Source: Folioceros fuciformis (Eukaryota). Taken from it: a stretch of 52,170 bases of DNA. The DNA is taken from the NCBI GenBank assembly GCA_049999805.1, contig JBNGIO010006164.1:89769-141938 (forward strand), written 5' to 3'. This document shows, one piece after another, positions 12,208 to 34,016 of the stretch. The notes under the pieces were generated by a model. That model did not search any database, had not been told where the DNA came from, and saw only the letters and a program-made list of their open reading frames with translations. The translations under genes and the position numbers were made by a program. Each line of letters begins with the position of its first letter. Within the stretch, counting starts at the first letter, position 1.

Positions 12208-14638
12208 ATGGCCACAGTGTGGCAGCCGGATCCGGTCTGGACCCAACAAATTGGTGTGTCTCCAGGAGTGTACGAGGAGCCCTCGCTGAGCCCACCTTGG
12301 AGGTGTGGCCGTGGCAAAGAACCAGGTGTCCAGGTGCAGCAGTGCACCAAGCCCAGCAGCTGCTCCACTTGCCAGGAACTCTGTGCGTTGGGGCCAATTT
12401 GGCACTGATGGGGCTCGCGAGGTGCAGGAGTACGTGTGGCAACAATTCTTTCTGGACCCTACCCTGTGGTGGGACGACAGACGAGATAAGAAGAGCTCCT
12501 GTGCACCTGACTTCCGGCGTAAGGAATCCAGCGAGGGCCTGGGGTTAAAAGCGTGCTCAAGCCAGCCTGGGTCGATGAGCAACTCTTGTCCTTGGATATG
12601 CACGTGGCTCAAGGTGCCTCTCCTTCCAAGTCCAGGTCTGTGGGTAATACTGAACCTGGCAGGAGTGCAGGATCGGAAATGGGCGCCGTAACGGCTGTAA
12701 CCGTGCACACGTCACGCCAGCAGGGGAAGCTCTCTGAGGCCGTTGGAGCTTTGGAATCTCTGGCGCAAGCAGACCCTGCTACCTCGCATTCTCTGGTCTA
12801 CGCTGTTCTGAAACTGCGCACAGCTAAGAAGGACCTGGTTATGGGGCGACGAGTTCATGACCTCGTTGTCCGACTTGGTTACGAGTCGGATCCTTACTTG
12901 GGGAACCATATATTGCGCATATACGTATGCATCTGGAGGTAGGCTGCAGGCGGCCATGGATGTGTTCACCAGGGTGGGGAAGCCAAATGTGTTCATGTGG
13001 TTTTCCATAATCTCTTCACATGCCAAACACGGCAAACCTCATGAGGCCATACGACTGTACCATGAGATGCGCAGGTCAGGAGTGAAGGCGGATGGCCACG
13101 TCTTCGTAGCTGTCCTTCGAGCTTGTGCATTCGCTGCTGACTTGGAGTCTGGCAGGAGAGTGCACCGCGATGTGTTTGCACAGCGGCATTCCTCCCGACT
13201 TGTTCGTTGAAAACTGCCTTCTGAACATGTATTATCAAGTGTAAAGCACTGGGAGATGCACGCCGCGTTTTTGGCAGTTTGGGCACCAAGGATGTGGTGA
13301 CATGGAACACCCTCATAGCGGGGTATGCACAGCAAGGACTTGGCCGAGAGGCGCTTGTTGTGTATGGACAAATGGAGCAGGAGGGCCTCATCACGGCCGA
13401 CCATGTCACTTTCGCTTGCCTTCTCAAGGCCTGTGCAAGCACGGGTGCCTTACAGCAGGGCAGGCAGCTGCACTCACTCATTGTGGAAAGGGGGCAGCTG
13501 GACACAATGTTGGGCAACTGCCTGGTGGACATGTATGCAAAATGTGGTGACCTGGAACGTGCACGCCACGTTTTCGAAAGCTTGGCCACAAAGGATGTGG
13601 TGACCTGGACGGCACTGATTGATGGGTATGTGAAGCAAGGGCTGGGGCATGAGGCACTTGTTGTGTATGGACGCATGGAGCAGGAGGGCCTGAGCAGATC
13701 TAACCATTTCACTTTTTCTTGCCTCCTGAAGGCGTGTGCAAGCACTGGCGCCTTGCAGATGGGCAAGCATTTGCACTCACAGATTGTGGGAAAAGGGTAG
13801 CTGGATATTGTGTTGGCCAACAGCCTGGTGGACATGTATGCGAAATGTGGTGAAATGGAAGCTGCACGCCAGGTTTTTGACAGCTTGGCCAGGAAGATGT
13901 GGTGACATGGACCACCATGATATGTGGGTATGCACAGCAAGGACTGGGCCAGGAGGCGCTTGGTCTTTTCGGACAGAGATGGAGCAGAAGGGCCTAATTT
14001 TGGCTGATGATGTGACTTTTGTTTGCCTTCTGAAGGCGTGTGCAAGCACTGGTGCCTTGCAGGCGGGCAGGCAGCTGCACTCGCTGATTGTGGAAAGAGG
14101 TCAGCTGGACATAAAGTTGGGCAACTGCCTGCTGGACATGTATGCAAAGTGTGGCGAACTTGGAGATGCTCGCCAGGTCTTCGACAGCTTGGGCTCCAAG
14201 GATGTGGTGACATGGAATGCCCTCATAGCTGGGTATGCACAGCAAGGTCTGGGTCAGGAGTCGCTCCTCCTGTACGGACAGATGGAGTAGGATGGGCTGA
14301 TTTCGGCTAACCCTGTGACTTTTTCTTGCCTGCTGAAGGCCTGTGCAAGCACCGGCGCGTTGCAGAAGGGCAGGGAGCTGCACTCACAGATCGTCGAAAG
14401 AGAAATGCTGGATAACATCGTGTTGGGCAACTGCCTGGCGGACATGTACGCCAAATGTGGCGAACTGGAAGTTGCACGCCAGGTTTTCGACAGCTTGGCG
14501 TCAAAGAACGTGGTGACATGGAATGCCTTGACAGACGGGTGTGGTTCTAGGGTTGAACACAGGGACATCGTTGTGAGGGACGGCTACCGCGTGGATCGAT
14601 TGGCAGCTGGTAGTTGCACTTGTAAGAGTCGACCGTGA
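12208..14638 (+). pseudogene. Pseudogene of a GRP-type PLS-DYW:KP PPR gene (PDF motif, PPR array, truncated DYW tail)
   Basis: Colinear with paralogues at 19478 and 22461 from MATVWQPDP onward, but split across frames (shifts near 12550, 12925, 13180-13245 and 13890-13975). In-frame TAG at 13798 and 14288. The last PPR is joined directly to the DYW tail RDIVVRDGYRVDRLAAGSCTCKSRP*. Confidence 0.9.
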
Positions 14639-15072
14639 CGTGAGAGGACACATCCCTATTGCACACCGTTGGTAATAATATTTCTCTTAAGAGCCCAGCC
14701 TGGTGTGACATATTAGTGGAATGAACAGGACGTTTTCGTTTCTTTCTTCGACACGCAGTGAAAAGACGAGCTTTCAAGTCACAGGAGGCTTGATCTCGCC
14801 TATCAATCGGCCCGACGGTCGGGACCAGGGCCTGATCGAGATTAGATGGCGTATTAGACTTCACAAAAGGCATGCCACGTTACGTGACAAACATGCAAGA
14901 GTAGTGGGCGACGACCCTGACAAGTGGAGCATCCATGGGATACATCTTGTTGCTAGCTTCTAGAGGACAACACCTGGAGGTCCGTGGCGTAGGTTTTCCG
15001 CCCCGAGAAGGTGTGGATGGCAATGCCAGCGGCTGTGCAAGATGCCTTTACATCGTGTTGCCCAATGGACTC

Positions 15073-17616
15073 TCAACACCGATCTCTGCATGAACAAGCC
15101 CCGTCCAAGAACCGATGCACTCGATGCGAATCTCGCACCACGATCTCCCGCTTCTCAAGCCGTGACATGATTTTGGTGCTGCTGTGGCAGTCGTTGCACA
15201 TGCGCAGATTCTTGGTCACTACCAAAGTTGTGCCATCCGGTGTGCTCAGCAGACCATACGCCAAGGCCAGTTTCTCTGCATGCCCACACAGCGCATCCTC
15301 TTTCTCCTGCTCCGATACGGCCCTCAACACTAATTCTGTTTGTGGCACGTGGCCCCCTTCATCCTTCAACCTGGAGCTCATACTTGTTAGCGTTCCCAAA
15401 ATGTCAGCCCTCTTCTCCCCAACAGTGAACTCGTGCACCTCGTTCTTCACTTCGATGCACGCCTTTGCAGGCTTCTTCACGGCACCTGCTGCCTTTCTCA
15501 AGCTTTCTATTGTATCAACAGCATCCCACCAGCCTGCTTTGGCATACATGCTACCCAACAACACATAGGCACTTGCATTTTCTGGTTCCAGCTCTACAAG
15601 ATGCTCGAAGCATCGATGCCCACGCTTTACATCACCGTGGCTTTTGCAAGCACTCAGCAACGCTTTCCAGCCCACGGCCACATTCATATAGGAGAGAGTT
15701 TGCAGAATATTTTCAGCCTCAGCCAGATAACCTGACCGACCAAGGAGACTGACCATGCAGCTATAGTGATACTCAGTGGGCGTGATTCCATGTTCCTCGA
15801 TCATCATCCTGAAATAACGCAGGCCCTCACGTACCAGGCCTGCATGACTACATGCCACGAAAAGACAGGTGAAACTTGTTTCGTCTGGTTGGATTCCTTG
15901 CTGAAGCATCTCTTGGAAACACTGAATTGCCCTTTGACCATCTCCGTGTTCAGCATACCCATTGAGCATCGCTGTCCATGTCACCAGATTTTGGGTGGCC
16001 ATCTTGTCAAACACTTTTCGGGCGTCTTCTAAACTACCGCATTTGGAGTACATGTCCACCAGGCAGCTGCCGAGGAGCACATCATCTTCCAAACCAGCTT
16101 GCTGGATCTGCCTAGCAAGCTGCTTCCCCTGCTGGAGGGCACCCACACTGGTACATGCCCGGAGAAGGCACCCAAGGGTGAACGAGTCCAGTGGGGAGAT
16201 ACCCTCCTGCTGCATGCTTGCATACAGATACAGAGCTTCTCGACCCAGATCCTGCTGGGCATACAATGCAACCATAGTAGTCCACATTTCCACATCTCTG
16301 TTGGGGCAAGTGTCAAACACTTTGCGGGCATCCTCCAAGCTCCCGCATTTTGCGTACATATTCACCAGGCAGTTACCGATGGCTACATCACCTTCAAGGC
16401 CTCTTTGTCGAATCTGCGAGTGGAGCTGCTTCCCCTGCTGCAGTTCTCTGACAGCAGCACACGCCTGGAGAAGACAAACAAAAGTCACGCGGTTGGCTGG
16501 ACCGATGCCCTCGTGCTGCATCCTTGCATACAGAGCTAGAGCTTCTGTCCCGAGCCCCTGCTGAGTATATCCATCAATCAGGGCAGTCCATGTCACCACA
16601 TCTCTTGTGGGCATGATTTCAAACACCTCGCGGGCCTCGTTCAAGGCTCCACACTTGGCGTACATGTTCACCAGGCTATTCTTGACAAAAAGATCCGTCT
16701 TGTCCGCACTAGCCTCAACATGTACGTGAACCTCCTTCCCCGACACCAGGTCCCGTGCTGAGGCACAGGCCTTGAGGACTGCCACGAAAACATGGTTATT
16801 AGGCTCCGCACCGAATGCTCGCAATTGCTCATAGAGGTTGATAGCCTGCGTATGCTGCCCGTGTCGGACATGTGCCAGAATGATGGACGCCCACATGTGA
16901 ATGCTGGGAACAGGCACTCGGGAAAAGGCATCAACTGCACCATCCAACCTGCCATGAGAGGAGAACATACCAATGAAGTGGTTGGCCAAGAATGCGTTGG
17001 AACCATGCCCACATTGGAGTGCCAGAGCATGCACGCGCTCACCACAGACGAGATTCTTCTCTGCCATGCACCTCTTGAGGACACGATAAAAGAGGGTGTC
17101 GGAGACGTGGCACTCTCGATGCACCAGGGTGTCCAATGCCTCGACAGCAGCATTCAGCTCTGCCTCTTGGCAACATTTGCTCAGGCTGTGGAACATGGGA
17201 TCGAGTCCAGGTGAGGCACGAGGCCCCCTCATGAGGACATCTAACCTGGCCAGCTGCGCGTCCACCCAAGCCGGCTTCCGAGCGCTGTTGAGCCACAGCG
17301 GCTCCCTGGAGGTTTTGTGCCTGAAGTCGGGATGTGTGGGACCCCTCTTGTCCGGTCTGTTATCCCACCAGTCTGAGGGATCCTGGAAGAATCGGTGCCA
17401 CAGCTGCTCCTGCCGCGTGTCTTCATCTTCATTCCGTTGGGAGGCTTGGCTCCCTTCCACTTGGCCAAGTGCAGGAACCAGGGTTCGGGATGCGACCGGA
17501 TAGCAGCCCGATTTGCCAGCGGCGGCCGCACCACGCACACGTCCACTTGCATCGTAGCCATGGGATCTCTGAATTGCTGGCCTCCCTGGTGTTAAAGGGA
17601 AAGGAAGAGCAGGCAT
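15073..17616 (-). CDS. PLS-class PPR protein with N-terminal OSB-like PDF motif, about 14 PPR motifs, E1/E2 and a DYW:KP domain of DRH-like type (ends CSCRDRC)
   Basis: 847-aa intronless ORF with P-L-S triplets, P2-L2-S2, KKPAKACIEV, GHAEKLALAYG, KNLRMCNDCH and RDSHRVHRF. An additional upstream exon cannot be excluded (CAG immediately precedes the ATG). Confidence 0.93.
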   Translation of the reverse strand: MPALPFPLTPGRPAIQRSHGYDASGRVRGAAAAGKSGCYPVASRTLVPALGQVEGSQASQRNEDEDTRQEQLWHRFFQDPSDWWDNRPDKRGPTHPDFRHKTSREPLWLNSARKPAWVDAQLARLDVLMRGPRASPGLDPMFHSLSKCCQEAELNAAVEALDTLVHRECHVSDTLFYRVLKRCMAEKNLVCGERVHALALQCGHGSNAFLANHFIGMFSSHGRLDGAVDAFSRVPVPSIHMWASIILAHVRHGQHTQAINLYEQLRAFGAEPNNHVFVAVLKACASARDLVSGKEVHVHVEASADKTDLFVKNSLVNMYAKCGALNEAREVFEIMPTRDVVTWTALIDGYTQQGLGTEALALYARMQHEGIGPANRVTFVCLLQACAAVRELQQGKQLHSQIRQRGLEGDVAIGNCLVNMYAKCGSLEDARKVFDTCPNRDVEMWTTMVALYAQQDLGREALYLYASMQQEGISPLDSFTLGCLLRACTSVGALQQGKQLARQIQQAGLEDDVLLGSCLVDMYSKCGSLEDARKVFDKMATQNLVTWTAMLNGYAEHGDGQRAIQCFQEMLQQGIQPDETSFTCLFVACSHAGLVREGLRYFRMMIEEHGITPTEYHYSCMVSLLGRSGYLAEAENILQTLSYMNVAVGWKALLSACKSHGDVKRGHRCFEHLVELEPENASAYVLLGSMYAKAGWWDAVDTIESLRKAAGAVKKPAKACIEVKNEVHEFTVGEKRADILGTLTSMSSRLKDEGGHVPQTELVLRAVSEQEKEDALCGHAEKLALAYGLLSTPDGTTLVVTKNLRMCNDCHSSTKIMSRLEKREIVVRDSHRVHRFLDGACSCRDRC

Positions 17617-18618
17617 CTGATTTCCTTAACAGTTCATAGCTCTGCGACGCTTACTTGCTGTTCAAACCCATCCTTACACGGCCAGAAGCTTTCCCGCTTG
17701 CGAAGCATGCATTGAGAGAACCCTCAGGGGGGTTGGATGAACGCAGGGGCGTTGGATGAAGCATAAGCCCAGCGGTCTCGCCAGACACAGCGGAAATACC
17801 GATCCAGTTTAGGGTTCACGGTCTTCACCGACGGTGCTAGCGTATCCTCGTGTTCGACTTGTTGACAAGTCCACCGCCTCGAGTCCAGAAGTAGTCGAGT
17901 CTGTGTTTTTGTGTCTGCATGAATACAGGCTGATTTCAGTAGCTGAGAGGGATGCAAGTCCTCCAAGGATTCAAAGCTAAAGCCGAAGAAATTCTGCCGT
18001 GGAGCAGGAAGGAACATTTTTTTCACTCTGCGCATGAGCTAACAGGCTTACGGTTAGTTCGAATTGTCCAAGGTGTAGGAAGCCGTCCAATCTGCTTGAC
18101 AATCCGGATTCGAGACCCGTAGTGACATGAAATGTGTTCACAGGAGATGTCCTACAAGGACGGGGGCAATACTCCTTGCGACGAAGTCTGGAGCACCGAA
18201 AGCTTACCGGCCTCATGTTTCCTTCTCCAGATCTCTGATGCCTGCATCTCTGAGGCACAGGGGGACTGAGGAAGCTTGCAAAGTGGCCCGTCTTTCATGC
18301 AGACCAAGGTTTTGGCCGGTGGTGTAGCCGGGCCGGTCCCAGGGCTGTCAAGGAAAGCAACGCCGTTGCCTGGACGAACTGCGCAGCCGCACAGAGCTCC
18401 TCCTCCGCCAGCTCCGTCCCCGGCTCATCTCAGACGACGTTACCACGGCCTCCTGGGGCAGCGAGCACACTATTATTATCATATCAAGGTTGGAGGTGCC
18501 CTATGCTCCGGAACTGTGAATCTTCAAACATTCCACGAATAACAATTATTTATGTAATTAAGTCTGTGTAAGGGCTTGGCAGTACTCAATAGCTGGGCAT
18601 CCTGCCATACCATCGGCA

Positions 18619-18667
18619 GGCAGATTGTATTGTGGGAGGCAGATTGTATTGTGGCCGGCAGATTGTG
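18619..18667. repeat. Short tandem repeat, about 2.5 x 19 bp (GGCAGATTGTATTGTGG)
   Basis: Directly visible. Confidence 0.7.
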
Positions 18668-19006
18668 CGGTTAGACTCGTCTCCCCGTACCAAGCCGTGG
18701 AAATTGGCAGGCAACGCAACCGGACCCGTCGTGAATTCAGCCTCCGAATTGGTGTGTACGAAGATTGTAGAACGAGGCCCCTGGCTCCCGTCACTTCAGG
18801 GCGTGAACCGGCGGCAAACAAAGCCCTAGCCCCAAGTACAGGGTGCAGCAGGGGAAGGAGCCGCGAGAAATGTGTGCAACACGCCTCGCCTAAAGCTGAC
18901 CAGCTTGGGTTTCCGGTCGTGGTGGCCAGTAGTGCATCTTCTTCTAAACGTGTTCAGATATAATTATTTAGCTATTAAATTTAATGTTACGAACCACCCG
19001 TCATCT

Positions 19007-19090
19007 GTCAGGATGGCCGAGTGGTCTAAGGCGCCAGACTCAAGTTCTGGTCTTCGGAAGGGGGCGTGGGTTCAAATCCCACTTCTGACA
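19007..19090 (+). tRNA. trnL-CAA: tRNA-Leu(CAA), intronless, long variable arm
   Basis: Acceptor stem GTCAGGA/TTCTGAC plus discriminator A; A-box TGGCCGAGTGG; anticodon arm CCAGA-CTCAAGT-TCTGG (CAA at 19041-19043); T-arm GTGGG-TTCAAAT-CCCAC; TTTT at 19118-19121. Confidence 0.97.
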
Positions 19091-19130
19091 GGATTGGGTA
19101 GGATGGTTGTCTATAACTTTTCAACCCGAA

Positions 19131-19230
19131 AGGGGTTGTGGGTTTAGATCCCACTACCTATTTCAGGGGTTGTGGGTTTAGATCCCACTGCCTAGGTCAG
19201 GGGTTGTGGGTTTAGTTCCCACTTGCGACA
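19131..19230 (+). repeat. Three tandem 34-bp copies of a tRNA T-arm-like hairpin (AGGGGTTGTGGGTTTAGATCCCACT...)
   Basis: Units start at 19131, 19165 and 19199. Each holds GTGGG-N7-CCCAC, the same stem as the T-arm of the upstream tRNA-Leu. Confidence 0.85.
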
Positions 19231-19477: not shown

Positions 19478-21895
19478 ATGGCCACAGCATGGCAACTGGA
19501 CCCCATGACAACCCAACAAAATGGAAATGGTGTGCGGAAAGGGATTCTAGCAGCAGCTCCCGCTCACCTCATCCCAGGAAGTCAAGCTCTGGCCACCAGA
19601 TGCAGCATTGTTAGGACCCCGGCACTCCCACTGCCCAACAAATTCGTGGGTGGAGACGGGCTCTCGACCAATGTCCGACTCCAGGAGCAGAAGCAGGAGC
19701 AGGAGCGCCTGTGGTGTCAACTGTTTCTGGAGCCCACCAGGTGGTGGGACAACAGACGAGAGAAGAAGAGCTCCCGTTCGCCTGACTTTTGGCGTAAGGG
19801 GTCCGGCGAGCTCCTCTGGTTGAACCACACGTTTAAGCCAGCTTGGGTTGATGAGCAGCTGGTCTCCATGGATATGCATATGTGTCATGGCGCCTCTGCT
19901 TCCAAGTCCAGTTCTTGGGATGAGCCTGAACTTGGTAGGTGTGGAGGATCGGGGAGGGGCGTCGTGACGGCTGCAACCGTGAGCAGGTTATGTCAGCAGG
20001 GGAAGCTTTCTGAGGCCGTTGGAGCTCTGGAGTCTCTGGCGCAGACGGATTGTGCCATTTCCCAGTCTCTGTTTTATACAGTCTTGAAACTGTGTACAGC
20101 TAAGAAGGATTTGGCTGTGGGGCGACGAGTTCATGATGTCACTGTCAGACTGGGACATGATACGAATGCATACCTGGGCAACCATATTTTGCGCCTGTAT
20201 GCATCTGGAGGTAGGCTGAAGGAGGCGATGGATGTGTTCACCAGGGTGAGGAAACCGGATGCCTTCATGTGGTCTTCAATAATCTCCGCTCACGCTAAGC
20301 ATGGTAGGCCTGAAGAGGCCGTCCAGCTGTACCATGAGATGCGTAGGTCAGGAGTGAAGGCGGATGCTCACGTCTTCGTAGCTGCTCTTCAGGCCTGTGC
20401 ATTGGCTGCCGACTTGGAATCTGGCACAAAGGTGCACCGTGATGTGGTGCACAGTGGCATCACCACTAACTTGTTTGTTGGCAACTGCCTGGTGGACATG
20501 TATGCAAAGTGTGGCGAGCTGAAAGAGGCACGCCAGGTGTTTGACAGCATGGCTGAAAGGGATGTGGTGACCTGGAATGCCCTGTTAACCGGGTATGCAA
20601 AATGTGGCGAGCTCAGACATGCACGCCAAGTTTTCGACACCATGGCCACGAAGGATGTGGTGACATGGAATGGCCTGATTGCTGGGTATGCACAGCAAGG
20701 ACTTGGCCAAGAGGCGCTTGCTGTGTACCAACGAATGGAGCACGAAGGTGTCGTTGTGGCCAACCATGTTACTTTTGCTTGCCTTCTCAAGGCGTGTGCA
20801 AGCTCCGGTGCCTTACAACAGGGCAGGCAGCTGCACTCACAGATCGTGGAAAGAGGACTGCTGGGTAACCTGCAGGTGGGCAACTGCCTGGTGGACATGT
20901 ATGCAAAATGTGGTGAACTGGGAGGGGCACGCCAGGTCTTTGACAGCATGAAGACGAAGGATGTGGTGACATGGACGGCCCTCATATCTGGGTATGGTGC
21001 ATGTGACCAAGGCGACAAGGCGCTGGCCTGTTTTGAGGACATGTTGGCTGCCGGGATTCAGCCCAACGATGCTACCTTTATTTGCCTTTTGGTAGCGTGC
21101 AGTCATGGTGGGCTGGTGGACCACGGTCGCAAGCTCTTTGGTTGCATGGCTGAACAGCATGGCATCAAACCAAGTATTGAGCATTACAATTGCATGATCG
21201 ATCTCCTTGGGCGTGCAGGCCATTTAGATGAGGCAGAGAACATGCTAGCAGAGGAGATGCGACTATCAGCCCGGGGGGGCCAAAACATTGTCGTGGGATT
21301 GACGTCCTTGTTGAATGCCTGCAAAAGTCACGGGGATCTGGAGAGGGCGATGTGGTGTTTTGAAAGCATTGTTAAGCTTGACCCCCTTGAAGGGCCCGCC
21401 TACGTGCTCATGGCCCATGCCTATGCAGATGCAGGTAGGTGGACCGATGTAGACAGGATCGAAACGCAGAGGAAAGTAGCAGGAGCAAGCAAGAAGCCTG
21501 CAGTGGCCACCATCGAGGTCAATAAGGAAGTGCATAGATTTGTGGTGGGAGACAAAAGAGAGGATATTGCTCTGAAGGTAGAGTGCACGAATGCCCGTCT
21601 GAAGCAGGAGGGAGGCCACGTACCTCACACCAAGTTGGTGTTGAAGCCACTGTCTGAGAAGGAGAAGGAGGATTCGCTTTGTGGGCATGCAGAGAAGCTA
21701 GCTCTGGCGTTCGGTCTGTTGAACACTCCGAGTGGGATACCTCTGGTGGTAACGAAGAATCTGCGCATGTGCAGTGACTGCCACAGTTCCACGCAGATCA
21801 TGTCAAAGCTTGAACAGAGGGACATTGTTGTGAGGGATGCGTATCGTGTGCATAGATTCGCAGCGGGTTGTTGCAGTTGTAAGGGTCGACCGTGA
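19478..21895 (+). CDS. PLS-class PPR protein with N-terminal PDF motif, about 12 PPR motifs (one SS), E1/E2 and a GRP-type DYW:KP domain
   Basis: 805-aa intronless ORF with KKPAVATIEV, CGHAEKLALAFG and KNLRMCSDCH, ending CCSCKGRP. Confidence 0.94.
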   Translation: MATAWQLDPMTTQQNGNGVRKGILAAAPAHLIPGSQALATRCSIVRTPALPLPNKFVGGDGLSTNVRLQEQKQEQERLWCQLFLEPTRWWDNRREKKSSRSPDFWRKGSGELLWLNHTFKPAWVDEQLVSMDMHMCHGASASKSSSWDEPELGRCGGSGRGVVTAATVSRLCQQGKLSEAVGALESLAQTDCAISQSLFYTVLKLCTAKKDLAVGRRVHDVTVRLGHDTNAYLGNHILRLYASGGRLKEAMDVFTRVRKPDAFMWSSIISAHAKHGRPEEAVQLYHEMRRSGVKADAHVFVAALQACALAADLESGTKVHRDVVHSGITTNLFVGNCLVDMYAKCGELKEARQVFDSMAERDVVTWNALLTGYAKCGELRHARQVFDTMATKDVVTWNGLIAGYAQQGLGQEALAVYQRMEHEGVVVANHVTFACLLKACASSGALQQGRQLHSQIVERGLLGNLQVGNCLVDMYAKCGELGGARQVFDSMKTKDVVTWTALISGYGACDQGDKALACFEDMLAAGIQPNDATFICLLVACSHGGLVDHGRKLFGCMAEQHGIKPSIEHYNCMIDLLGRAGHLDEAENMLAEEMRLSARGGQNIVVGLTSLLNACKSHGDLERAMWCFESIVKLDPLEGPAYVLMAHAYADAGRWTDVDRIETQRKVAGASKKPAVATIEVNKEVHRFVVGDKREDIALKVECTNARLKQEGGHVPHTKLVLKPLSEKEKEDSLCGHAEKLALAFGLLNTPSGIPLVVTKNLRMCSDCHSSTQIMSKLEQRDIVVRDAYRVHRFAAGCCSCKGRP

Positions 21896-22460: not shown

Positions 22461-24956
22461 ATGGCTACGGTATGGCCACCGGACCCGTTGTGGACCGAAC
22501 AAGTGGGCGTGTGTACCGAAATGGTGTTACTAGGTCGAGCACCCGCACACCTCAGCTTAGGGAGTCAACTCATTGCTAGAGAAGAGGCATTCAGGTGCTG
22601 CAGTATGAGGATCCAAGCGCTTCCACTTCCGACAAAATGTGTGCCTCGGGACGGGTTTCACAACAATGGCCGTTGCCAGGAGGAGGAGCTCTTGTGGCAA
22701 CAATTTTTTCAGAATCCTACCATGTGGTGGGATAACAGACGAGATAAGAAGAGCTCCCGTTCGCCTGATTTCCGGCGGAAGGGATCCGGCCAGGTGCTGT
22801 GGTTAGACAGCATGTTTAAGCCAGCTTGGGTTGATGAGCAGCTCGTTTCCTTGGATATGCAGCTTGGTCATGGTGCCTCTTCTTCCGAGTTCAGGTTTCC
22901 GGATAAGCCTGAACCTGAAAAGAGTGGAGGATCCAGTATGGGCGTTGTCACGGCTGGCACCGTGAGCATGTTATGTCAACAGGGGAGGCTTTCTGAGGGT
23001 GTTGGAGGCCTGGAAGCTCTGGCGCAGACAGGCGCTGCCATTCCACAGTCTCTGTTTTACACCCTGCTGAAACTATGTACAGCTAAGAAGGATTTGGTGT
23101 TAGGTCGACGAGTTCATGATGTCACTGTCAAGCTTGGGTACAATTTGAATGCATACTTGGGGAACCATATCTTGCGCCTGTACGCATCATGTGGAGGTAG
23201 GCTAGAGGAGGCCATGGATGTGTTCACCAGGGTAGGCAAACCAGATGCCTTCATGTGGTCTTCTTTGATCTCGGCTTACGCCAAGCATGGAAAAGCTAAC
23301 GAGGCTGTACAACTGTACCATGAGATGCGTGGGTCAGGAGTGAAGGCTGATGCTCACGTCTTTGTAGCTGCCCTCCAAGCTTGTGCATTGGCCGCCGACG
23401 TGGAATCTGGCAGAAGAGTGCACAGTGATGTGGTGCACAGTGGCATTCCTCCTGACTTGTTTGTTGCCAACTGTCTGGTGGACATGTATGCAAAGTGTGG
23501 CGAACTGAAAGATGCGATCCGGGTTTTTGACAGCATGGCCACAAAGGATGTGGTGACATGGAACGCCCTGATTTCTGGGTATGCGAAATGTGGTGAAATG
23601 AAAGATGCGCGCCAAGTTTTCGACAGCATGCCCACAAAGGATTTGGTGACTTGGAATGCCCTGATATCTGGTTATGCAAAATGTGCTGAACTGAAGGAAG
23701 CACGCCAGCTTTTTGATACCATGGCCACAAAGGATGTGGTAACATGGAATACCCTGATTGCTGGGTATGCACAGCAAGGACTTGGCGAACAGGCTCTTGT
23801 TGTGTATGAACTCATGGAGCAAGAGGGCCTCATTTTGGCTAACCATGTCACCTTTGCTTGCCTTCTGAAGGCTTGTGCAAGCACTGGTGCCTTGCAGAAG
23901 GGCAGACAGCTGCACAAGCAGATCGTTGAAAGAGGACTGCTGGATAACGTACTAGTGGGCAACTGCCTGGTGGACATGTACGCAAAATGTGGTGAACTGG
24001 AAGACGCACGCCAGGTTTTCGACAGCATGAACACAAAGGATGTGGTGACATGGACCGCCCTGATATCTGGGTATGGTACGTGTGATGAAGGTCACAGGGC
24101 ACTTGCTTGTTTTGAGGAGATGTTAGTGTCCGGTGTTCAGCCTGATGATGCGACTTTCACGAGCCTTCTAGTAGCATGCAGTCATGAGGGACTGGTGAAC
24201 GAGGGTCGCAAGTACTTTGATTCCATGGCTGAAGAGCATGGCATGCAACCCACTCTCGAGCACTACAATGGCATGATTGATCTTCTCGGGCGTGCAGGCC
24301 GTTTGGATGAGGCACAGACAATGCTCTTGTCATGCGAGGGCCAAAGCAACGTTGTGGGCTTGAGGTCTTTAATGAATGCTTGCAGAAGTTACGGGGATGT
24401 GAACAGGGCTATGTGGTGTTTTGAAAGCATTGTCAAGCTGGAGCCCCAGGAGGCACCAGCGTATGTGCTCATGGCAAATGCCTACGCAGACGCAGGTAGG
24501 TGGACCGATGTACACAGGATTGAGACGCAGAGAAGGGTAGCAAGAGCTAATAAGAAACCTGCAATGGCGACCGTCGAGGTCAGTGAACAGGTACATAGAT
24601 TCGTGGTGGGAGAAAGGAGACAAGATATTGCGCTTAAGGTAAAGAGCACAAATGCCCGTCTGAAGCAGGAAGGAGGCCACGTACCTCACACGAAGCTGGT
24701 GTTGAAGCCGCTGTGTGAGGAGGAGAAGGAGGATGTGCTTTGTGGGCATGCTGAGAAGCTGGCTCTGGCGTTTGGTCTCTTGAACACTCCGAGTGGGACA
24801 CCTCTTGTGGTGACCAAGAATCTACGGATGTGCAGCGACTGCCACAGTTCCACGGAGATCATGTCCAAACTAGAAGAGAGACACATTGTTGTAAGGGATG
24901 GGTACCGTGTGCATCGATTCGCAGCTGGTTGTTGCAGTTGTAAGGGTCGACCGTGA
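22461..24956 (+). CDS. PLS-class PPR protein, tandem paralogue of 19478, with PDF motif, about 13 PPR motifs (two SS), E1/E2 and a GRP-type DYW:KP domain
   Basis: Start placed at ATG 22461 (MATVWPPDP) by homology with both paralogues; the track's 22197 start is a GTG extension. Contains KKPAMATVEV, HAEKLALAFG and CSDCH and ends CCSCKGRP; 831 aa. Confidence 0.93.
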   Translation: MATVWPPDPLWTEQVGVCTEMVLLGRAPAHLSLGSQLIAREEAFRCCSMRIQALPLPTKCVPRDGFHNNGRCQEEELLWQQFFQNPTMWWDNRRDKKSSRSPDFRRKGSGQVLWLDSMFKPAWVDEQLVSLDMQLGHGASSSEFRFPDKPEPEKSGGSSMGVVTAGTVSMLCQQGRLSEGVGGLEALAQTGAAIPQSLFYTLLKLCTAKKDLVLGRRVHDVTVKLGYNLNAYLGNHILRLYASCGGRLEEAMDVFTRVGKPDAFMWSSLISAYAKHGKANEAVQLYHEMRGSGVKADAHVFVAALQACALAADVESGRRVHSDVVHSGIPPDLFVANCLVDMYAKCGELKDAIRVFDSMATKDVVTWNALISGYAKCGEMKDARQVFDSMPTKDLVTWNALISGYAKCAELKEARQLFDTMATKDVVTWNTLIAGYAQQGLGEQALVVYELMEQEGLILANHVTFACLLKACASTGALQKGRQLHKQIVERGLLDNVLVGNCLVDMYAKCGELEDARQVFDSMNTKDVVTWTALISGYGTCDEGHRALACFEEMLVSGVQPDDATFTSLLVACSHEGLVNEGRKYFDSMAEEHGMQPTLEHYNGMIDLLGRAGRLDEAQTMLLSCEGQSNVVGLRSLMNACRSYGDVNRAMWCFESIVKLEPQEAPAYVLMANAYADAGRWTDVHRIETQRRVARANKKPAMATVEVSEQVHRFVVGERRQDIALKVKSTNARLKQEGGHVPHTKLVLKPLCEEEKEDVLCGHAEKLALAFGLLNTPSGTPLVVTKNLRMCSDCHSSTEIMSKLEERHIVVRDGYRVHRFAAGCCSCKGRP

Positions 24957-25157
24957 GTGTCACGGCGAAGTAGCCAGTGATTCCAGTGGTCCAGAGACAG
25001 AAGGAACTTGGCAACTGTTCTTCTGGCGGGGAGAAATCGATACGACACTGTGTAGGGCGGGGTTCCCTCAGGTGTGTGCTTTGTCCTTGTTTCTACTTCT
25101 ACAGCCACTGCCAAGTTCCTGCCCTCCCTTCCTCAAGCGCGGGGGGGGGGGGTGGGG

Positions 25158-25257
25158 NNNNNNNNNNNNNNNNNNNNNNNNNNNNNNNNNNNNNNNNNNN
25201 NNNNNNNNNNNNNNNNNNNNNNNNNNNNNNNNNNNNNNNNNNNNNNNNNNNNNNNNN
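25158..25257. other. Assembly gap (100 N)
   Basis: Run of N preceded by a G homopolymer. Confidence 0.99.
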
Positions 25258-26011: not shown

Positions 26012-29000
26012 ATGACCTCAACTGTGCGCCACAGCCCTCCCCGGCATCGCCACGATGGCACCTCCCCTCTGCCCCTGGGCATGGACGCTAGCCCTGCCCC
26101 CGCCCGCTGGGTACGTCAATTCTCTCCTCTCAATGTGCCTGCTCCGCCCCCGCCACGATGCCGATCAATCGGAGGCGCGGCTAGTTGAATGCTCCAGGGC
26201 CGGAATTCTGCGCTCTCCCGTTCNNNNNNNNNNNNNNNNNNNNNNNNNNNNNNNNNNNNNNNNNNNNNNNNNNNNNNNNNNNNNNNNNNNNNNNNNNNNN
26301 NNNNNNNNNNNNNNNNNNNNNNNGTCGTCGTGCTTTGCTTCGCCGGAGATGATCCGGTGTCGAATTTCGTGCTTGATTGCCTCTGGATCTCTGTGCTCTA
26401 CCACCTGACTCCCGAATTTGAGTGCGTCGTTGAGTTCGTATGTTGCATGACCTATTTGATGGACGTTGGATGATTTGAATCTTCCGGGAATTGAGTGTGA
26501 CGTGTGGCTCAGGTGCTTCAGTCTGGTTCTTAAGGTGTTTGGCTGTAGTCAGGAAGTTCGGTACCAGAGTTTGAGCGTGTGTGTGGATCTGTTGCGTCCT
26601 TCACGTGATTGTCCGTGGTTGGAAGACCTAGTTGATCTCTCCAGAATTGCAGCCTCCTGCGGACGCAGTTTAGAACTTCTTTCTGTTTTGGTGAAGCTGA
26701 TGTGGGAGGCCATGTATGGTATGGTGGATTGCAGAATGGTGCATCTACGGTGTGGCCACACGATCCGCGCACCGGCTGGAGTTACTGTGTCCTCATACCT
26801 TCATGGGAAATCCTGCCTGAAGCCAGGACCGCTGACGGCGTCGGCATAAACCCGACAGTGGTAAGGGTCTAGCTTGCAAGGGAGTAGATTGCTTTCACGA
26901 GCCTTTTCAGGCAGGAAGTGATGGGGCACTGCAATGTTCCCTGTGCATTTTGGCACTTAACTGTCTCGCTGTTGTTGGGGTGAATGCAGTACTTCAGGGT
27001 TCAGGTTGGCATTCAGTCACCACAAGGTGTGAGTGTTCGCCATCGCACTCTTCGGCGATTCAGTGATTTTTTGAAGCTGCAAGCTGCAGTACGCACCTGC
27101 CTCTATTGAAGTGGAAGGGATCTTGTGCTGGGTCGCGTCGCTGGAATGATGCGCATAGGCTTATGTTTCACTCATTGTTTGCCCGGCCTGGACAGCTGAA
27201 GCGAGTCTTTCCCAAGAAGAGGATACCTTCAGCTCCTCCCAAAAGCGCTTTGCTGCGGATAAACGCCAGTCACTCTTTGTTGCAAGAGGTAGGTTTACTG
27301 GCGTTTTGGATTCACTCGTGCGTGGCACCCATTGTTTGCGTTTGTGCGGAAACTGTTGTCCCTGATCGGACATGCCGTGAGCTTCTTACAGAGGAGGCGT
27401 GCGTTAGAGGATTGGATGGAAAGATTGTTGGCGGACATCGATATCTCACGAAGTGCGACAATGGCATCTTTTCTGGAACTTGAAGCTGCTGCCAGAGAAG
27501 GTAGTTGGCCCCATCTGATAACTGAGTTCCATTTGTCTCCACGAAGGACCTGCTGTCAGGCTGACCTGCTTGCCCAGTAGACCCCAGTTCTGACTTTCTT
27601 CATGTATGACACAGCTTTGCCCTCACGAGATCAGCTTTGACTCTGTGCAGCTGCAAGTACTGTCAGCGAAGGTCATGAGGCAACTACCCCAGTGGTTGAC
27701 GACATTTCTGCTGTTTCACAGTCTGTCCCAAACTTAAGGTCTAGCTTTTTATGGACAGGTAGTGCTGCATCAGGATCTCTGAGTACAACATATAGTACAT
27801 CTGGTTTACAAACCCCTATAAAGAGCGGTGACTCATCGGAGATTGAAATGGAAGCCATTGTCACTAGTGAAGCACTAGACGCAATCAGGCAAGCAGTGGA
27901 TACAAAACGAGGGGAATACATCCCACAAGGAGAGCATGCCAGTCCCCAAGTGGATACCCAGGAGGCGTCAGATGCAGGCTCAGCTATCCTTGGACAGCCT
28001 AAGTGGACTTCTGGAACTGATGCAGGGTATCAGGGTATTGTGAAGGGACCAGAGTTGGTGAATGCATTAGACTCAGTTGGATCGCACCTCCAAAGGAAGG
28101 CCTCGTGTAACAGTATTGCAAGTGAATTTAGCTCTGCTCGAGACAGTGAGCAGACACTTCTTGCTTCAGTACCAACTGCTAGTGAGACGGGTTCCCGACG
28201 TGACTTTCGAGATGGAAAAGCTGAACCTCTGGGGTCCTCTGACTTGGATTTTCTTAAGGGAGTGGGCATTGTTCTACCAAAGGACAATCGAAGCAAAGTG
28301 AACCGTGTTTTCATGTCGTTGCAACGGAGGGTCTCTGTAGCTGAAACAGACATCGAGGAGCTTGTGACACGGCTTAGTCAGGAGACAGCCGTGAAAGAAT
28401 TCTTGGCAACTAAGGTGTGGTTCTGCCTCCTACAAGCTATTTCTGTGTTTTGCGTTAAGTGTGGAGACGTCAATGTGGATCAGGTTGCTTGGGCTTTCCC
28501 TCCTACAGTGTTTGTCGTCCTTGATTCAGTGCAGGTCAAAGATTTGGAAGCTGATCTGGACAACGCCCGTCGGAAAAGTAAGGAGGTTTTAAGGCATGCT
28601 GTGTTTACTGAAAGGGAACGAATTACTAGTCTGCAGTGGGAGCTTGAAGATACTCGCGCAGCTCTTGTGAATCTTGAGGATAGCGTCAAAGAAGAGCAGG
28701 TGGGAATGAAGTTGATGCATACGTAGATACGAAATACGGTGGTGGTGGAATGCATTGTCTAGATTTTTTGAACCTGCTCATTTTACCTTACTCTGTGGTT
28801 TAGATTGCCCGGAAGGAGGCTGATACCGGTCTTCAAGCAGCAACTTCAGCCCAGCAGAAAGCAGAGGAGGAAGTTCTGAAATTGCAAGAGAAGTGCACAT
28901 CACTTCAGGAGGCTTTATCCACTCTTGAGGCACAAGCAAAATCTGATAGGAAAATCATGGCCAAGGAGATTAAAACGTTGCGCAGAGTACATCCTGAGCT

Positions 29001-29790
29001 AAAGGATGAGGTGCAACAGGCCCTAAAGGCAAAACTTGAGATTGAGGTATCACTTTTGATCTGTGCTTACAACCCTGTTCAGATCTGCAGGATTACCGGA
29101 GTGAGACCCTGCAGAATCTGGGAGTCTCATGGGATGCTTGTGGCCCTCTGCGGTGGTAGTGTCAAATGATTGACAAATGTGCATTACAGGCCAAGTTATT
29201 GGAGCAGAAGCAAAAAGAGGAAAGAGAAACTATGCTGCGGTCTCAATTTTTGCATGAAGTAAGTGTTTTGCGGCAGAGACTCCAGGAGTGCAGTGTCGAG
29301 TTCCTTGCGAAGGAGGAAGGGCAAGGTGCTAGTCATGGGCTGTCGCAAGACGCGCATGCCCTGGACCTTCTTGAAACATCTGACAACAGGATAGGCTTCC
29401 TTGTTGCAGAGGTGAGGGTTAAACAACTGAACTAGAAAAACATGTCTTCTACCTTTTCCTCTTTGTCTGAACAACAGTGTCTGACTCCTTCAGGCACAAC
29501 TTCTTGCTGAGGAAGGACGCAGCAAAACAGGGAATCCCTTCACGAATGGATCATCTCGAAATGGCCCCTTGCATAATGGAGCGCAAGAATCTCAAGAGGA
29601 TTCAGGGATTGATCATTCTGTAAGAAAGATTCTTACTGATGTCTTCATTGAAAATGCCCAGTTGCGGAAGTCTGTCAATGCCTTATCTAGAAATGCCCTC
29701 TTGAGAGCAGAGAGAAAGGGGAGTGATGCAAACTTAGAGGAAACTGTAAACAGAAAAAGTGTACTAGGGTCTCTTCTGAAGGGCTCGTAG
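26012..29790 (+). CDS. PX-domain and coiled-coil protein of the EREX/EREL (RAB5 effector) family, multi-exon; first intron spans the gap at 26224-26323
   Basis: Exon 1 (26012-26110) [33 protein letters not shown]; exon 2 from 26735 [24 protein letters not shown]; then [13 protein letters not shown]...[75 protein letters not shown] and [15 protein letters not shown]. Confidence 0.88.
26224..26323. other. Assembly gap (100 N)
   Basis: Run of N inside intron 1 of the PX gene. Confidence 0.99.
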
Positions 29791-31026
29791 TTTGTAATCT
29801 TGCTCGATGTTTTGTACAAACGCGAGCCTCAGGCTTCGGTGTTAACTCAAGTGAAGGGAAACATGATTAGCACTCCATTACAGTGCGTTAGGTGCAACTC
29901 AACACAAGTCCGTGTGCACTTTTTCCACGAGTGGCACACCCAAATTCATTATTGTGGGACTTCCTATATTTATGTCATCCTCTCCAAACAAACCCAATGC
30001 ATACTGTGCCTAATGCTTTGATGCAACCTGCAGGAGATTTGCTTCTGAGAACTGAGCAGTCATACGACTGGACGCTTTGAGTTAGCTCTAATTCGGCCTG
30101 CTGGACAGATCGAGACATAGGACTCCTCCGACTCCTGGGTGGGAGTCGCGTCAGCTTAAGGGGTGTGTTCTTGTGTCTGCAACGAGTCATTTGTCTCTAT
30201 CCTTGGGAAGTCAATTGAATGGGGGCATGACCCAGGTGGAACTTTTTGTTTCGGGAGGCGGTTGCTTACTTAGCTCTTGCACACCTGTCACCGCGCCCTC
30301 ACTGCCGACAGAGCCTCGTAGTACTAAGTGCAGGAGGTCGCAGTATGCATCTACTGTAGTTCCATTTCAGTCAACAAAAGGGAAGGTGAAAACGACCTAC
30401 TTCAGTCAAGGTTTTGCAGCTCCTGAATGGCAGTAGTGAAGAGAGCAGCAGCTGCGTTTCAATCTCCGAATCGACCGACGCGACGAATGCTTCACTCCTG
30501 TGAAATCATACGTGGCATGCCATGCCCCGTCCATACACAGAACACCATTCGCCTAAGGCTAAGGCTAGCCAGCACACATACGGCTTTGCGACGACGCGGA
30601 TTTCACGGGAGTGAAGCATTCATCAGATTGAGACGAGATTGAGACGCAGCCCAGAAACAGAGGCGAAGACATACCCTGATCGCCCGCGGCTTCTGAAGAC
30701 CAGGAACCCCCAAATTTGTTGCCAGTCACCTGCACACCATGGTTATCGTTCTTCCATTTCCTCCTCAAATTCCTGAATACAGTTAGCTGGCTACCTGGAA
30801 TCCTGTATCGACTGGGATGCGATCCAGAGCACACCGGCTGCTTGCTGAAGCGCTCGATGGTGCGATCCGGTTCGCCCACGATGCAGAATGCTCGACAGCC
30901 AGACATCTCACGGCAGGCAATAGCATGGAGGATCGGGCCAGCTGCAGCGGAACTTCTTTTGGATGGCATCCTTGAGTGTGGCGCTGGATATATGCATTCC
31001 TCTTTGCTGAGTTGCCCGGATGAATG

Positions 31027-31048
31027 AGCAGCAGCAGCAGCAGCAGCA
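31027..31048. repeat. (GCA)n microsatellite, about 7 units
   Basis: Directly visible. Confidence 0.8.
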
Positions 31049-31193
31049 GAATTTGATCCTTCACTGGCGGTGCTTACTCTTATGCGCAACACAAGTGTGG
31101 GGCGGATGCTGGTGAGGCTTTATCCCGGTCAAAGGTGTGGCGTGGGGCAGTCTCTAGTGGTTGCAGAATCACGCACATGAATCCGGACACGTC

Positions 31194-34016
31194 ATGACGC
31201 TCCAGCTGCCAGTGCCCGTGCCCGTGCCCGTGCCCAATTGCGCCATTCCCGACTGGGGCATTTCGGTGAACCAGCAACACCGATTCTGTGCTCCTGCAAG
31301 TCAGCATCCACCACGAAGGCCGGGTGCTTTCAGTGCTGAGGAGACTTCGGGCACTCAAGGATTCGGTGTTGCAGAGAAGGAGCGACTGGAGGTCCTGTGG
31401 CAACGCTTTTTTCTTGATCCTACACAGTGGTGGGACAACAGGGCAGATAAGAAGAGCTCCCGGCATCCCGACTTCAGGCACAAGACCTCTAAGCAGGCCT
31501 TGTGGCTGGAAGACTGTTTCAAACCTGGGTGGGTGGATTTGGAGTTGGAGTTGGCCTCCTGGGTTCCTTCAGGCAGGGAAGACGGTCCACAAGATGAGAG
31601 GCTGCGGGTGCGGTGTGAGGAAGCGGAGCTAAGGGAGGCTGTCGAGGCGTTGGCCATTCTGGTGCAGGAAGGAGCTTATGTTGATACCTCTCTTTTGTAT
31701 TGTCTTCTGAAGAGGTGCATAGCAGAAGAGGATCTAATCCTTGGCAGGCGAGTTCATGCTCTTGTTCTGAAGAGTGGATATGAGTCGAACGCATTCCTGG
31801 GTAATCACATCATGGGTATGTATGTTTGTCATGGGAAATTGGCGGAAGCTGTGCGAGTTTTGGACGACGTGACTGCACCAGACGCCTACATGTGGGCCAC
31901 CATCATTTTAGGGCATGTTCGACATGGTCAGCCCGTTGATGCCATGCGTCTGTATCGACGGATGAGGTACTTTGGGGTGGAGCCAGACAACCATGTGTTT
32001 GTGGCAGTTCTCAAGGCTTGCGCAGTGGCGGAGGATTTGGATTTTGGCAAAGAGGTCCATGCTGACATTTTCGCCAGCTTCGTTAGAGTCAACACAATCG
32101 TGGGCAACAGCCTTGTTAACATGTATGCAAAATGTGGAAGCTTAGATGATGCACGACTAGTGTTTGATGAGCTGCAAGCAAGAGACGTGGTTACATGGAC
32201 TGCCATGATTGCAGGATATGCACAGCGGGGCATGGGTCAAGAAGCCCTGGACTTGTACGCAGATATGCAGCAGGAAGGCATAATACCAGTCAATCATGTG
32301 ACGTATGTTTGTCTACTGAAAGCGTGCGCCAGCGTTCAAGCTCTGCACCAGGGGAAGCAGCTTCATGTTCATATTCAGCAACGTGGACTGGAAACCAATG
32401 TGCCTGTGGCCAACTGCCTGGTGGATATGTACTCAAAATGTGGGAATATTGAAGACGCACGGAAAGTGTTTGACAGTTTGCCCACCCGAGATGAGGTGAC
32501 ATGGAGTGCAATGATATCAGGATACACGCAGCAAGGGCTCGGTGGAGAAGCTCTTGCTCTGTATTCGAGGATGAAACAGGAATACATAACCCCAGCAGAT
32601 CCCGTCACCTTTTTGTGCATTATGCAAGCATGTGCCAGTGTCGGAGCTCTGCATCCGGGAAAGGAGCTTCATGTACAGATAGAGGAAAGGGGAATGGAAT
32701 CTGATGAAATCCTTGGCAGCTGCCTGGTCGATATGTATGTCAAATGCGGGAGCTTGGAAAATGCTCGCAGAGTTTTCAATAGACTGCCCAGTAAGACTAT
32801 GGTGACGTGGACTGCCATGGTCGCAGGTTGTGTGCAGCATGGTCTTGGTCGGGAAGCCCTTGGTGTTTACTCGAGAATGCTAGAAGAGGGTGTTACACCA
32901 ACTGATTCTGTTACCTTTGTTTGTCTACTGCAAGCATGTGCCAGTGTTGGAGCTCTGCAGCAGGGAAGGCAGCTTCACTCACAAATATTTGAAAGAGGGT
33001 TGGAAGGTGATGTGTTTACTGGCAGCTGCCTGGTGGACATGTATGCAAAATGTGGGAGCTTGGAAAGTGCTCGCCAAGTTTTTGATAGACTTCTTACAAA
33101 AAATGTGGTGACATGGAATGCTCTGCTCGCAGCCTACGCGGAGCACGGGGATGGTCAAGGTGCAATGAGCTGCGTCACAGATATGCGGCAGCAGGGTTTT
33201 GAGCCGAATGAGGCTACTTTTGTCTGTGTACTTGTGGCTTGCAGTCACGGGGGTTTGGTACACGAGGGCCGAGAGTATTTCAGGATGATGGTTGAGGACT
33301 ACAACATCATGCCAACCGATGACCACTACAATTGTCTGGTGGATCTCCTAGGCCGGTCAGGCTGCCTCAACGAGGCAGAAGACATGATGTACAAGGTACA
33401 GCTCAGAAATTACCTTGTGGGATGGACATCTTTGCTCAGTGCATGTAAAAGTCATAGTGATATTGAGCGGGGAAAGCGATGTTTTGACCGGCTTGTGAAA
33501 CTGGAACCTGGGAATGCAGGAGCCTACGTTCTCATGGGTACCATTTATGCAAGTGCTGGCAGGTGGACGGATGTCGATAGAATAGAGAACCTAAGAAAAG
33601 TGGCATCTGCTTGGAAGAAGCCTGCTAAAGTGTGCATTGAGGTGATGAACAAAGTTCACGAGTTCACCGTGGGTGAGGAAAGGACAGACATCTCGTCGAC
33701 CCTGAAGACTGTGAGCATGAGGTTGAAGGAAGGGGGCCATAAACCACAAACCGATCTGGTGCTGAAGGCAGCGTCTGAGCAGGAGAAGGAAGATGCTTTG
33801 TGTGGACACGCAGAGAAACTGGCTTTGGCCTACGGTTTGCTGAACACACCAGACGGCACTACTTTGATTGTCACTAAGAATCTTCGAATGTGCAATGACT
33901 GCCACAGTAGCACCAAGCTTTTGTCTAGTCTCGAGAAGCGACAAATTATAGTTAGGGACGCCCACCGAGTACATCATTTTCTTGACGGGTCTTGTTCTTG
34001 CAGAGACCTACATTAA
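31194..34016 (+). CDS. PLS-class PPR protein with N-terminal PDF motif, about 17 PPR motifs, E1/E2 and a DYW:KP domain of DRH-like type (ends CSCRDLH)
   Basis: First ATG of the 31161 ORF (MTLQLPVPVPVP). Contains KKPAKVCIEV, GHAEKLALAYG, KNLRMCNDCH and RDAHRVHHF. The start is uncertain because of a possible splice acceptor at about 31166. Confidence 0.92.
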   Translation: MTLQLPVPVPVPVPNCAIPDWGISVNQQHRFCAPASQHPPRRPGAFSAEETSGTQGFGVAEKERLEVLWQRFFLDPTQWWDNRADKKSSRHPDFRHKTSKQALWLEDCFKPGWVDLELELASWVPSGREDGPQDERLRVRCEEAELREAVEALAILVQEGAYVDTSLLYCLLKRCIAEEDLILGRRVHALVLKSGYESNAFLGNHIMGMYVCHGKLAEAVRVLDDVTAPDAYMWATIILGHVRHGQPVDAMRLYRRMRYFGVEPDNHVFVAVLKACAVAEDLDFGKEVHADIFASFVRVNTIVGNSLVNMYAKCGSLDDARLVFDELQARDVVTWTAMIAGYAQRGMGQEALDLYADMQQEGIIPVNHVTYVCLLKACASVQALHQGKQLHVHIQQRGLETNVPVANCLVDMYSKCGNIEDARKVFDSLPTRDEVTWSAMISGYTQQGLGGEALALYSRMKQEYITPADPVTFLCIMQACASVGALHPGKELHVQIEERGMESDEILGSCLVDMYVKCGSLENARRVFNRLPSKTMVTWTAMVAGCVQHGLGREALGVYSRMLEEGVTPTDSVTFVCLLQACASVGALQQGRQLHSQIFERGLEGDVFTGSCLVDMYAKCGSLESARQVFDRLLTKNVVTWNALLAAYAEHGDGQGAMSCVTDMRQQGFEPNEATFVCVLVACSHGGLVHEGREYFRMMVEDYNIMPTDDHYNCLVDLLGRSGCLNEAEDMMYKVQLRNYLVGWTSLLSACKSHSDIERGKRCFDRLVKLEPGNAGAYVLMGTIYASAGRWTDVDRIENLRKVASAWKKPAKVCIEVMNKVHEFTVGEERTDISSTLKTVSMRLKEGGHKPQTDLVLKAASEQEKEDALCGHAEKLALAYGLLNTPDGTTLIVTKNLRMCNDCHSSTKLLSSLEKRQIIVRDAHRVHHFLDGSCSCRDLH

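Follow-up and report, generated by a model that had tools for sequence, protein, structure and literature searches.

Organellar single-stranded DNA-binding (OSB) proteins of plants consist of an SSB-like domain followed by C-terminal PDF motifs, as described in two reviews (PMC6963530, PMC4166229). The PDF motif is defined as a unit of about 50 residues with a conserved Pro-Asp-Phe signature, and the motif of AtOSB1 was reported to be sufficient for binding to single-stranded DNA (ssDNA) (PMC6963530). OSB1 and OSB2 reportedly favour ssDNA over double-stranded DNA or RNA, and PDF motifs are reported from green algae onward (PMC4166229). Pentatricopeptide repeat (PPR) editing factors with a DYW domain, by comparison, are commonly pictured with three parts: transit peptide, PPR array and deaminase. 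Among them, the hornwort DYW:KP proteins comprise the two subgroups GRP and DRH (PMC9478123), and Lys88 was reported as the essential lysine of DYW:KP (PMC11845758). Here, we analyzed a stretch of 52,170 nucleotides from Folioceros fuciformis (assembly GCA_049999805.1, contig JBNGIO010006164.1, positions 89,769 to 141,938 of the forward strand; hereafter, the window), in which every PPR locus carries an OSB-type PDF motif ahead of its first PPR. The motif is homologous to that of OSB proteins, and its fusion to PLS-class PPR proteins proved to be neither peculiar to these genes nor a mark of uridine-to-cytidine (U-to-C) editing.

PDF motifs and their host genes

A tblastn map of the whole window identified only five PPR loci, namely four intact intronless genes and one pseudogene, and a six-frame pattern scan of the window found only five motif sites, one per PPR locus and each upstream of the first PPR. 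The intact genes are long open reading frames (ORFs) under the standard genetic code, and encode proteins of 847 aa (15073-17616, minus strand), 805 aa (19478-21895, plus strand), 831 aa (22461-24956, plus strand) and 940 aa (31194-34016, plus strand). Their PDF motifs lie, in the same order, at 17251-17403 (minus strand; residues 72-119 plus three more), 19709-19861, 22692-22844 and 31395-31547 (all plus strand), and the copy of the pseudogene (12398-14569, plus strand) lies at 12434-12585 on the plus strand. An initial annotation of this DNA had placed the motif in all five loci, and its four plus-strand copies translate as given; the minus-strand copy also exists, but the interval 17251-17404 was out of frame by 1 nucleotide and yields a nonsense translation, its start at 17404 being wrong and the correct frame beginning at 17403.

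Alignment of the five copies required just two gaps: one of a single residue, where the pseudogene copy is one residue longer, and one of 4 columns at the degraded end of that copy. Seventeen columns, P-D-F included, are invariant across the five copies, with residues of aromatic and basic character (W, F, R, K); P28, D29 and F30 are invariant both in all five window copies and in 17 PPR-linked copies. The pseudogene retains the N-terminal region and PPR repeats only, without E and DYW parts, and is frameshifted: the tblastn pieces alternate between frames 1 and 2 and end at query residues ~590-757, and all of its ORFs are short. Its motif is recognizable at about 12425-12553, with approximately the first 43 positions kept and the C-terminal third degraded (LWL changed to LGL, followed by a frame change).

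Because Pfam has no model for the motif, and the five segments matched none of its families at E ≤ 10, homology was tested by profile searches. A profile of the five copies was searched against 1.84 billion representative proteins and gave 900 matches at E ≤ 1e-3, including 350 at E ≤ 1e-10. Most of the best 150 of the 900 matches were proteins of 250-500 aa with 2-4 motif copies in the C-terminal half, such as an OSB1-like protein of Populus (P0052; E 3.9e-26; two motifs near the C-terminus), an OSB2-like protein of Telopea (P0056; E 1.5e-25; no Pfam match) and OSB3 of Anthurium (P0066; E 1.7e-23). An N-terminal match to the SSB family PF00436 was found in 3 of the 10 OSB-like matches scanned (P0036, P0052 and P0066), that of P0052 falling below the Pfam cut-off, and a protein with 13 motifs (P0005, Kingdonia uniflora) had a weak PF00436 match near its C-terminus. 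An N-terminal SSB match ahead of C-terminal motifs agrees with the layout published for OSB proteins.

The reverse search led to the same sites. When a profile built solely from 178 PDF motifs of 83 non-PPR proteins with OSB architecture was run against the 1117 six-frame ORFs of at least 30 aa in the window, it recovered exactly the five motif sites and, up to E 10, no further site; the five matches scored 50-76 bits, with E-values from 1e-14 to 8.5e-23. The scores were 50.2 bits for the pseudogene copy (profile positions 1-43), and 76.1, 65.5, 74.5 and 71.1 bits for the copies of the 15073-17616, 19478-21895, 22461-24956 and 31194-34016 genes, respectively. Chance resemblance, which was also considered, was ruled out by the restriction of these matches to the five window sites. 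In addition, the consensus of 138 PPR-linked motif instances was nearly identical to that of 376 other instances. With profile matches in both directions and near-identical consensuses, homology to the OSB PDF motif, which the initial annotation had proposed, is established. None of the four intact window proteins matched PF00436 at E ≤ 0.1; lacking the SSB-like domain, they are therefore not members of the OSB family, with which they share one module.

We then compared the motif with its flanks. Since synonymous divergence (dS) is saturated in five of the six gene pairs, the ratio of nonsynonymous to synonymous divergence (dN/dS) was usable for the GRP pair (19478 versus 22461), in which it was 0.48 for the presequence, 0.26 for the PDF motif, 0.73 for the linker, 0.19 for the PPR array and E motif, and 0.13 for the DYW domain. 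The motif had no gapped column in any of the six pairs, and its flanks had many gaps. Amino-acid identity between GRP-type and DRH-like proteins was 54-68% in the motif, whereas the presequence reached 15-27% and the linker 21-25%, which agrees with the earlier statement that the flanks of the two types are unalignable. The low dN/dS of the GRP pair and the absence of indels in all pairs likewise indicate that the motif is kept under purifying selection, as had been suggested.

In all four intact proteins, PF01535/PF13041 (PPR), PF20431 (E_motif) and PF14432 (DYW_deaminase) were matched above the curated Pfam cut-offs, DYW_deaminase covering residues 755-845 of the 15073-17616 protein. The first box of their DYW domains reads KKPA...IEV, versus ..PG..WIEV in the PG type; the individual KP boxes are KKPAKACIEV (the 15073-17616 gene), KKPAVATIEV, KKPAMATVEV and KKPAKVCIEV. 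An HAEKLA catalytic box (versus HSE) and a C(N/S)DCH signature are also present, HAE and C(N/S)DCH representing the zinc-binding HxE and CxxC signatures of DYW domains, and the C-terminal ends are DRC, GRP, GRP and DLH in gene order, DRC and DLH being variants of DRH, with neither being DRH itself. Thus, the KP box, the altered active-site region and the non-DYW end of the DYW:KP subtype, as delimited in PMC9478123, all occur in the four proteins, whose assignment to the PLS-E-DYW class of KP type was confirmed by the Pfam domains and KP boxes. Each protein is laid out as a presequence of ~65-75 aa, poorly conserved and predicted to be disordered, a PDF motif of ~50 aa, a variable linker of ~25-45 aa, a PLS-type PPR array, an E motif and the KP-type DYW domain. 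The GRP-type genes 19478-21895 and 22461-24956 are tandem paralogues with 72% identity (tblastn) and a dS of about 0.33-0.86 depending on the region, and the DRH-like genes 15073-17616 and 31194-34016 form an older pair, located on opposite strands and saturated in dS.

Spread and origin of the fusion

The distribution of the fusion was assessed with two lists of matches, the first being the best 150 of the 900 mentioned above, and the second the best 120 of 201 proteins matched at E ≤ 1e-5 when a profile of 17 PPR-linked motifs (alignment A2) was searched against longer proteins. The counts below rest on the union of both lists (250 proteins), and sources were counted by hand from source names. 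PPR repeats were found in 13 of the best 150 matches, from Diphasiastrum, Ceratopteris, Adiantum, Pteridium and Sphagnum, and 89 of the 250 listed proteins contained both PDF and PPR. The PDF was wholly N-terminal of the PPR tract in 87 of these 89, the remaining two being short fragments with overlapping envelopes, and it occurred in one copy in 60 proteins, in two copies in 22 and in three copies in 7. The 83 proteins carrying a source name came from Diphasiastrum complanatum (59), Sphagnum (13), ferns (8) and the liverwort Calypogeia fissa (3), and none of the 83 was from a seed plant. The 31 non-PPR proteins of the second list were mostly OSB-like proteins of angiosperms, plus one from a green (snow) alga. 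Hornwort proteomes are seemingly missing from the collection searched, in which the four proteins of the window do not occur as exact sequences.

A DYW domain was present in 32 of the 89 proteins. These 32 belong to Sphagnum, Calypogeia and Diphasiastrum, and every one is of the canonical PG type, with a PG box, HSE, and a DYW or DFW end. The models on record for the other 57 lack a DYW domain. N-terminal PDF-PPR proteins with one to three motif copies are thus numerous in a lycophyte, Sphagnum, a leafy liverwort and ferns, with a DYW:PG domain or with no DYW domain. The initial annotation had assumed that nothing but a transit peptide occupies this position in canonical PLS-DYW factors, and had linked the fusion to U-to-C editing; the first point is contradicted by the 32 PDF-bearing proteins of PG type, and the second fails for the same reason. 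Because all listed PDF-PPR-DYW proteins are of PG type, the fusion, as judged from the matches listed, does not mark a KP or U-to-C family and is not peculiar to the window genes, and it long predates the split between GRP and DRH. One listed protein without a DYW domain in the model on record, P0008 (a PPR protein of 1371 aa), carries three N-terminal PDF motifs, the first of which is the closest relative of the window motifs among the matches listed (64% identity to the copy of the 31194 gene).

To place the PPR-linked motifs among the others, a FastTree tree of 514 motif instances was inferred. Changes between the labels PPR and other numbered 10 on this tree, versus 109-128 in 100 shuffles, and one clade of 148 takes in 134 of the 138 PPR-linked motifs. 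This topology fits, without being proof of, a single ancient fusion, or a small number of them, that joined an OSB-derived PDF unit to a PLS PPR gene before the family expanded. Since PDF motifs are reported from green algae onward and the PLS class is a land-plant expansion, the transfer likely proceeded from an OSB-type gene to a PPR gene. PDF motifs were also observed on other scaffolds: P0049 (1526 aa) has three of them at 14-24% of its length together with a kinesin motor domain (PF00225, E 1.8e-86), and tandem arrays of 8-13 motifs occur in P0005, P0006, P0007, P0009 and P0011, OSB proteins being described with 1-3. Such 8-13-copy proteins might result from fused gene models or represent genuine arrays. 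Occurring as it does on scaffolds of SSB-like, PPR and kinesin type, the PDF motif is a mobile module and no hallmark of OSB proteins alone.

Possible functions of the PDF module

When the motif was modelled in isolation with alignment A2, the mean predicted local distance difference test (pLDDT) score was 79.3, and the model consists of three short helices, the first over LW..FF, the second, a short one, at LWL and the third over WVD..L, with WWDNR and PDF located in a long loop between the first two. A sequence search of the PDB with the motif gave CP29 as its best match at E 0.81, which is a chance level, and a Foldseek search of the motif model against the PDB gave no match at E ≤ 10. A full-length AlphaFold2 model of the 805-aa GRP protein (19478-21895) had a mean pLDDT of 80.0, with the PPR and DYW parts mostly above 90, including the PPR array, residues 1-64 below 30 and the linker (residues 133-159) below 50. 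These models are consistent with the PDF being a small module on flexible tethers rather than a cap packed on the PPR superhelix.

We propose that the PDF is probably a flexibly tethered accessory unit of an old PDF-PLS fusion that binds single-stranded nucleic acid without sequence specificity, a reading that draws on the conservation of the motif and on analogy with OSB1. The unit would survive import and remain part of the mature protein, forming a tethered mini-domain with many Trp, Phe, Lys and Arg residues, and would help the protein to hold single-stranded nucleic acid of any sequence, much as the OSB1 motif is said to do for ssDNA. On its RNA, a PPR array is oriented with the N-terminus facing 5', so that an N-terminal PDF would contact RNA 5' of the PPR footprint, or alternatively the ssDNA of the transcribing nucleoid. 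Either contact would raise the local concentration or the on-rate of the enzyme, whatever the direction of editing.

Several points weigh against this proposal. OSB1 and OSB2 were reported to prefer ssDNA to RNA (PMC4166229), and RNA binding by the PDF is therefore not a given. Designer KP proteins composed of PLS motifs and C-terminal domains (KP2, KP3 and KP6) edit U to C in Escherichia coli without a PDF (PMC9478123); the motif is therefore dispensable for U-to-C chemistry, and the module is at most accessory, with no part in the chemistry itself. Editing assays succeed without N-termini of this kind; Physcomitrium PPR56, which may or may not bear a PDF in its native form, was cloned with just 14 aa before its first PPR. 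With no structural match in the PDB, the fold of the isolated motif gives no functional clue, and in the full-length model the block means of the PDF region are 40-72, with residues 88-103 and 105-111 below 50, although a shallow alignment could also explain this low confidence. The gene starts, taken as the first ATG of each ORF, are predicted. As for the old fusion, the motif tree comprises 56 columns under a midpoint root, with a Shimodaira-Hasegawa-like support of 78 for the main clade, and 14 further motifs in this clade belong to proteins that are non-PPR or fragmentary, part of them short fragments (one source-named a PPR protein) and the rest OSB-like proteins. Finally, the taxon counts cover the top 120 of 201 matches in one search and the top 150 of 900 in the other, and one lycophyte genome inflates them.

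An alternative with a smaller but appreciable chance of being correct is that the PDF is a protein-protein interaction or assembly module, which docks the editor to OSB, to other nucleoid proteins or to other PDF-bearing editors. Tandem arrays of 2-13 copies and the presence of the motif on unrelated scaffolds such as the kinesin protein P0049 would suit a generic adaptor; AtOSB2 was reported to be tetrameric (PMC6963530), and non-seed plants, being without MORF proteins (PMC13386178), could have another route of editosome assembly. Against docking stand the reported sufficiency of the OSB1 motif for ssDNA binding (PMC6963530), and the aromatic and basic character of the invariant residues, which is as expected for single-strand contacts.

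A further and rather doubtful idea is that the PDF is the non-seed-plant counterpart of the MORF helpers, a built-in, sequence-unspecific single-strand clamp that tethers PLS editors to the transcribing nucleoid or to nascent RNA. Such a clamp would serve either editing direction and would make editing co-transcriptional. MORF helper proteins were reported to be confined to seed plants (PMC13386178), and the distribution of PDF-PPR proteins is complementary to this: the fusion was seen in proteins of liverwort, Sphagnum, hornwort-type, lycophyte and fern origin, and none of the 83 source-named proteins listed was from a seed plant. On this idea, and given the ssDNA preference reported for OSB1 and OSB2, it is even conceivable that some of these enzymes reach single-stranded organellar DNA.

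It is improbable that the motif is merely left over from an ancestor or belongs to the import presequence, being removed on import or having no role in the mature editor. Its position inside the first 130 residues, directly behind a disordered and divergent N-terminus, would allow this, and N-termini of this kind are routinely dropped in heterologous assays. However, the dN/dS of the motif is as low as that of the PPR array and no indels occur in it, while both flanks evolve freely; moreover, the motif is kept across liverwort, moss, hornwort-type, lycophyte and fern proteins, is present in as many as three copies on one protein, and in the pseudogene decays along with the remainder of the gene. 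Least probable is a specific adaptation of DYW:KP reverse editors, in which U-to-C amination would have the PDF as its built-in cofactor: the motif is indeed carried by each of the four intact KP-type genes of the window, and the KP/PG comparison covers groups other than hornworts, but the idea is largely refuted by the PG type of all 32 listed PDF-PPR-DYW proteins outside the window, by the 57 further PDF-PPR proteins with no DYW domain in the model on record, and by the activity of the designer KP proteins.

If the PDF is an accessory single-strand binder, it would represent a third functional part in the model of PPR-DYW enzymes, and would hint that RNA editing is physically tied to the nucleoid of the organelle. 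An ssDNA-binding-type module is found on scores of editing factors across bryophytes, lycophytes and ferns, and both native and designer editing proteins are routinely assayed without their N-termini. Adding or removing about 55 residues would be a handle, and one that is easy to test, for improving native-like or engineered editors.

Neighbourhood of the cluster and comparison with described proteins

Antisense ORFs of 160-406 aa lie inside the PPR loci at 12993-14213 (minus strand), 16052-16564 (plus strand), 20389-21042 (minus strand) and 23334-23846 (minus strand); rather than being genes, they most likely arise from the repeat and codon composition. Neighbouring frames at 2787-3974, 7452-8276 and 49573-50115, all on the minus strand, match a DEAD-box helicase (PF00270, PF00271), a plant PF03141 methyltransferase and CIAPIN1, and the genes around the cluster are ordinary plant nuclear genes. 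The GRP and DRH-like ends of the PPR proteins make hornwort nuclear DNA the most likely source of the window. A 361-aa frame at 27641-28726 (plus strand) had no Pfam match. The window contains four assembly gaps of exactly 100 N each (25158-25257, 26224-26323, 42818-42917 and 48224-48323), two of which fall between the GRP genes and the last PPR gene.

With OSB proteins, the window proteins have in common the PDF signature of about 50 aa, LW..FF..P..WWDNR..K..P..PDFKHK....ALW.....P.WV. In OSB proteins, an N-terminal SSB-like OB fold precedes 1-3 C-terminal PDF motifs, whereas the window proteins have no SSB domain, and their single PDF sits at the N-terminus, ahead of the PPR array and the deaminase-like domain.

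The hornwort DYW:KP proteins of the GRP and DRH subgroups are candidate or demonstrated U-to-C editors (PMC9478123, PMC11845758), and share with the window proteins the PLS array, the E motif, the KP box and HAE, the window proteins ending in GRP (two) or in DRH-like triplets. In the available parts of these papers, descriptions and designer proteins of DYW:KP deal with the PLS array and the C-terminal domains, and an N-terminal PDF is unmentioned; a full-text literature search likewise found no description of the PDF-PPR fusion, which may nevertheless have been mentioned before.

The canonical PLS-E-DYW:PG factors have the same overall architecture as the window proteins, and share its N-terminal PDF in many cases from Sphagnum, Calypogeia and Diphasiastrum. 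Unlike these canonical C-to-U factors, the window genes encode the KP variant of the DYW domain, and judging from their sequences, they are best described as DYW:KP (hornwort-type) members of an old and widespread PDF-PLS architecture.

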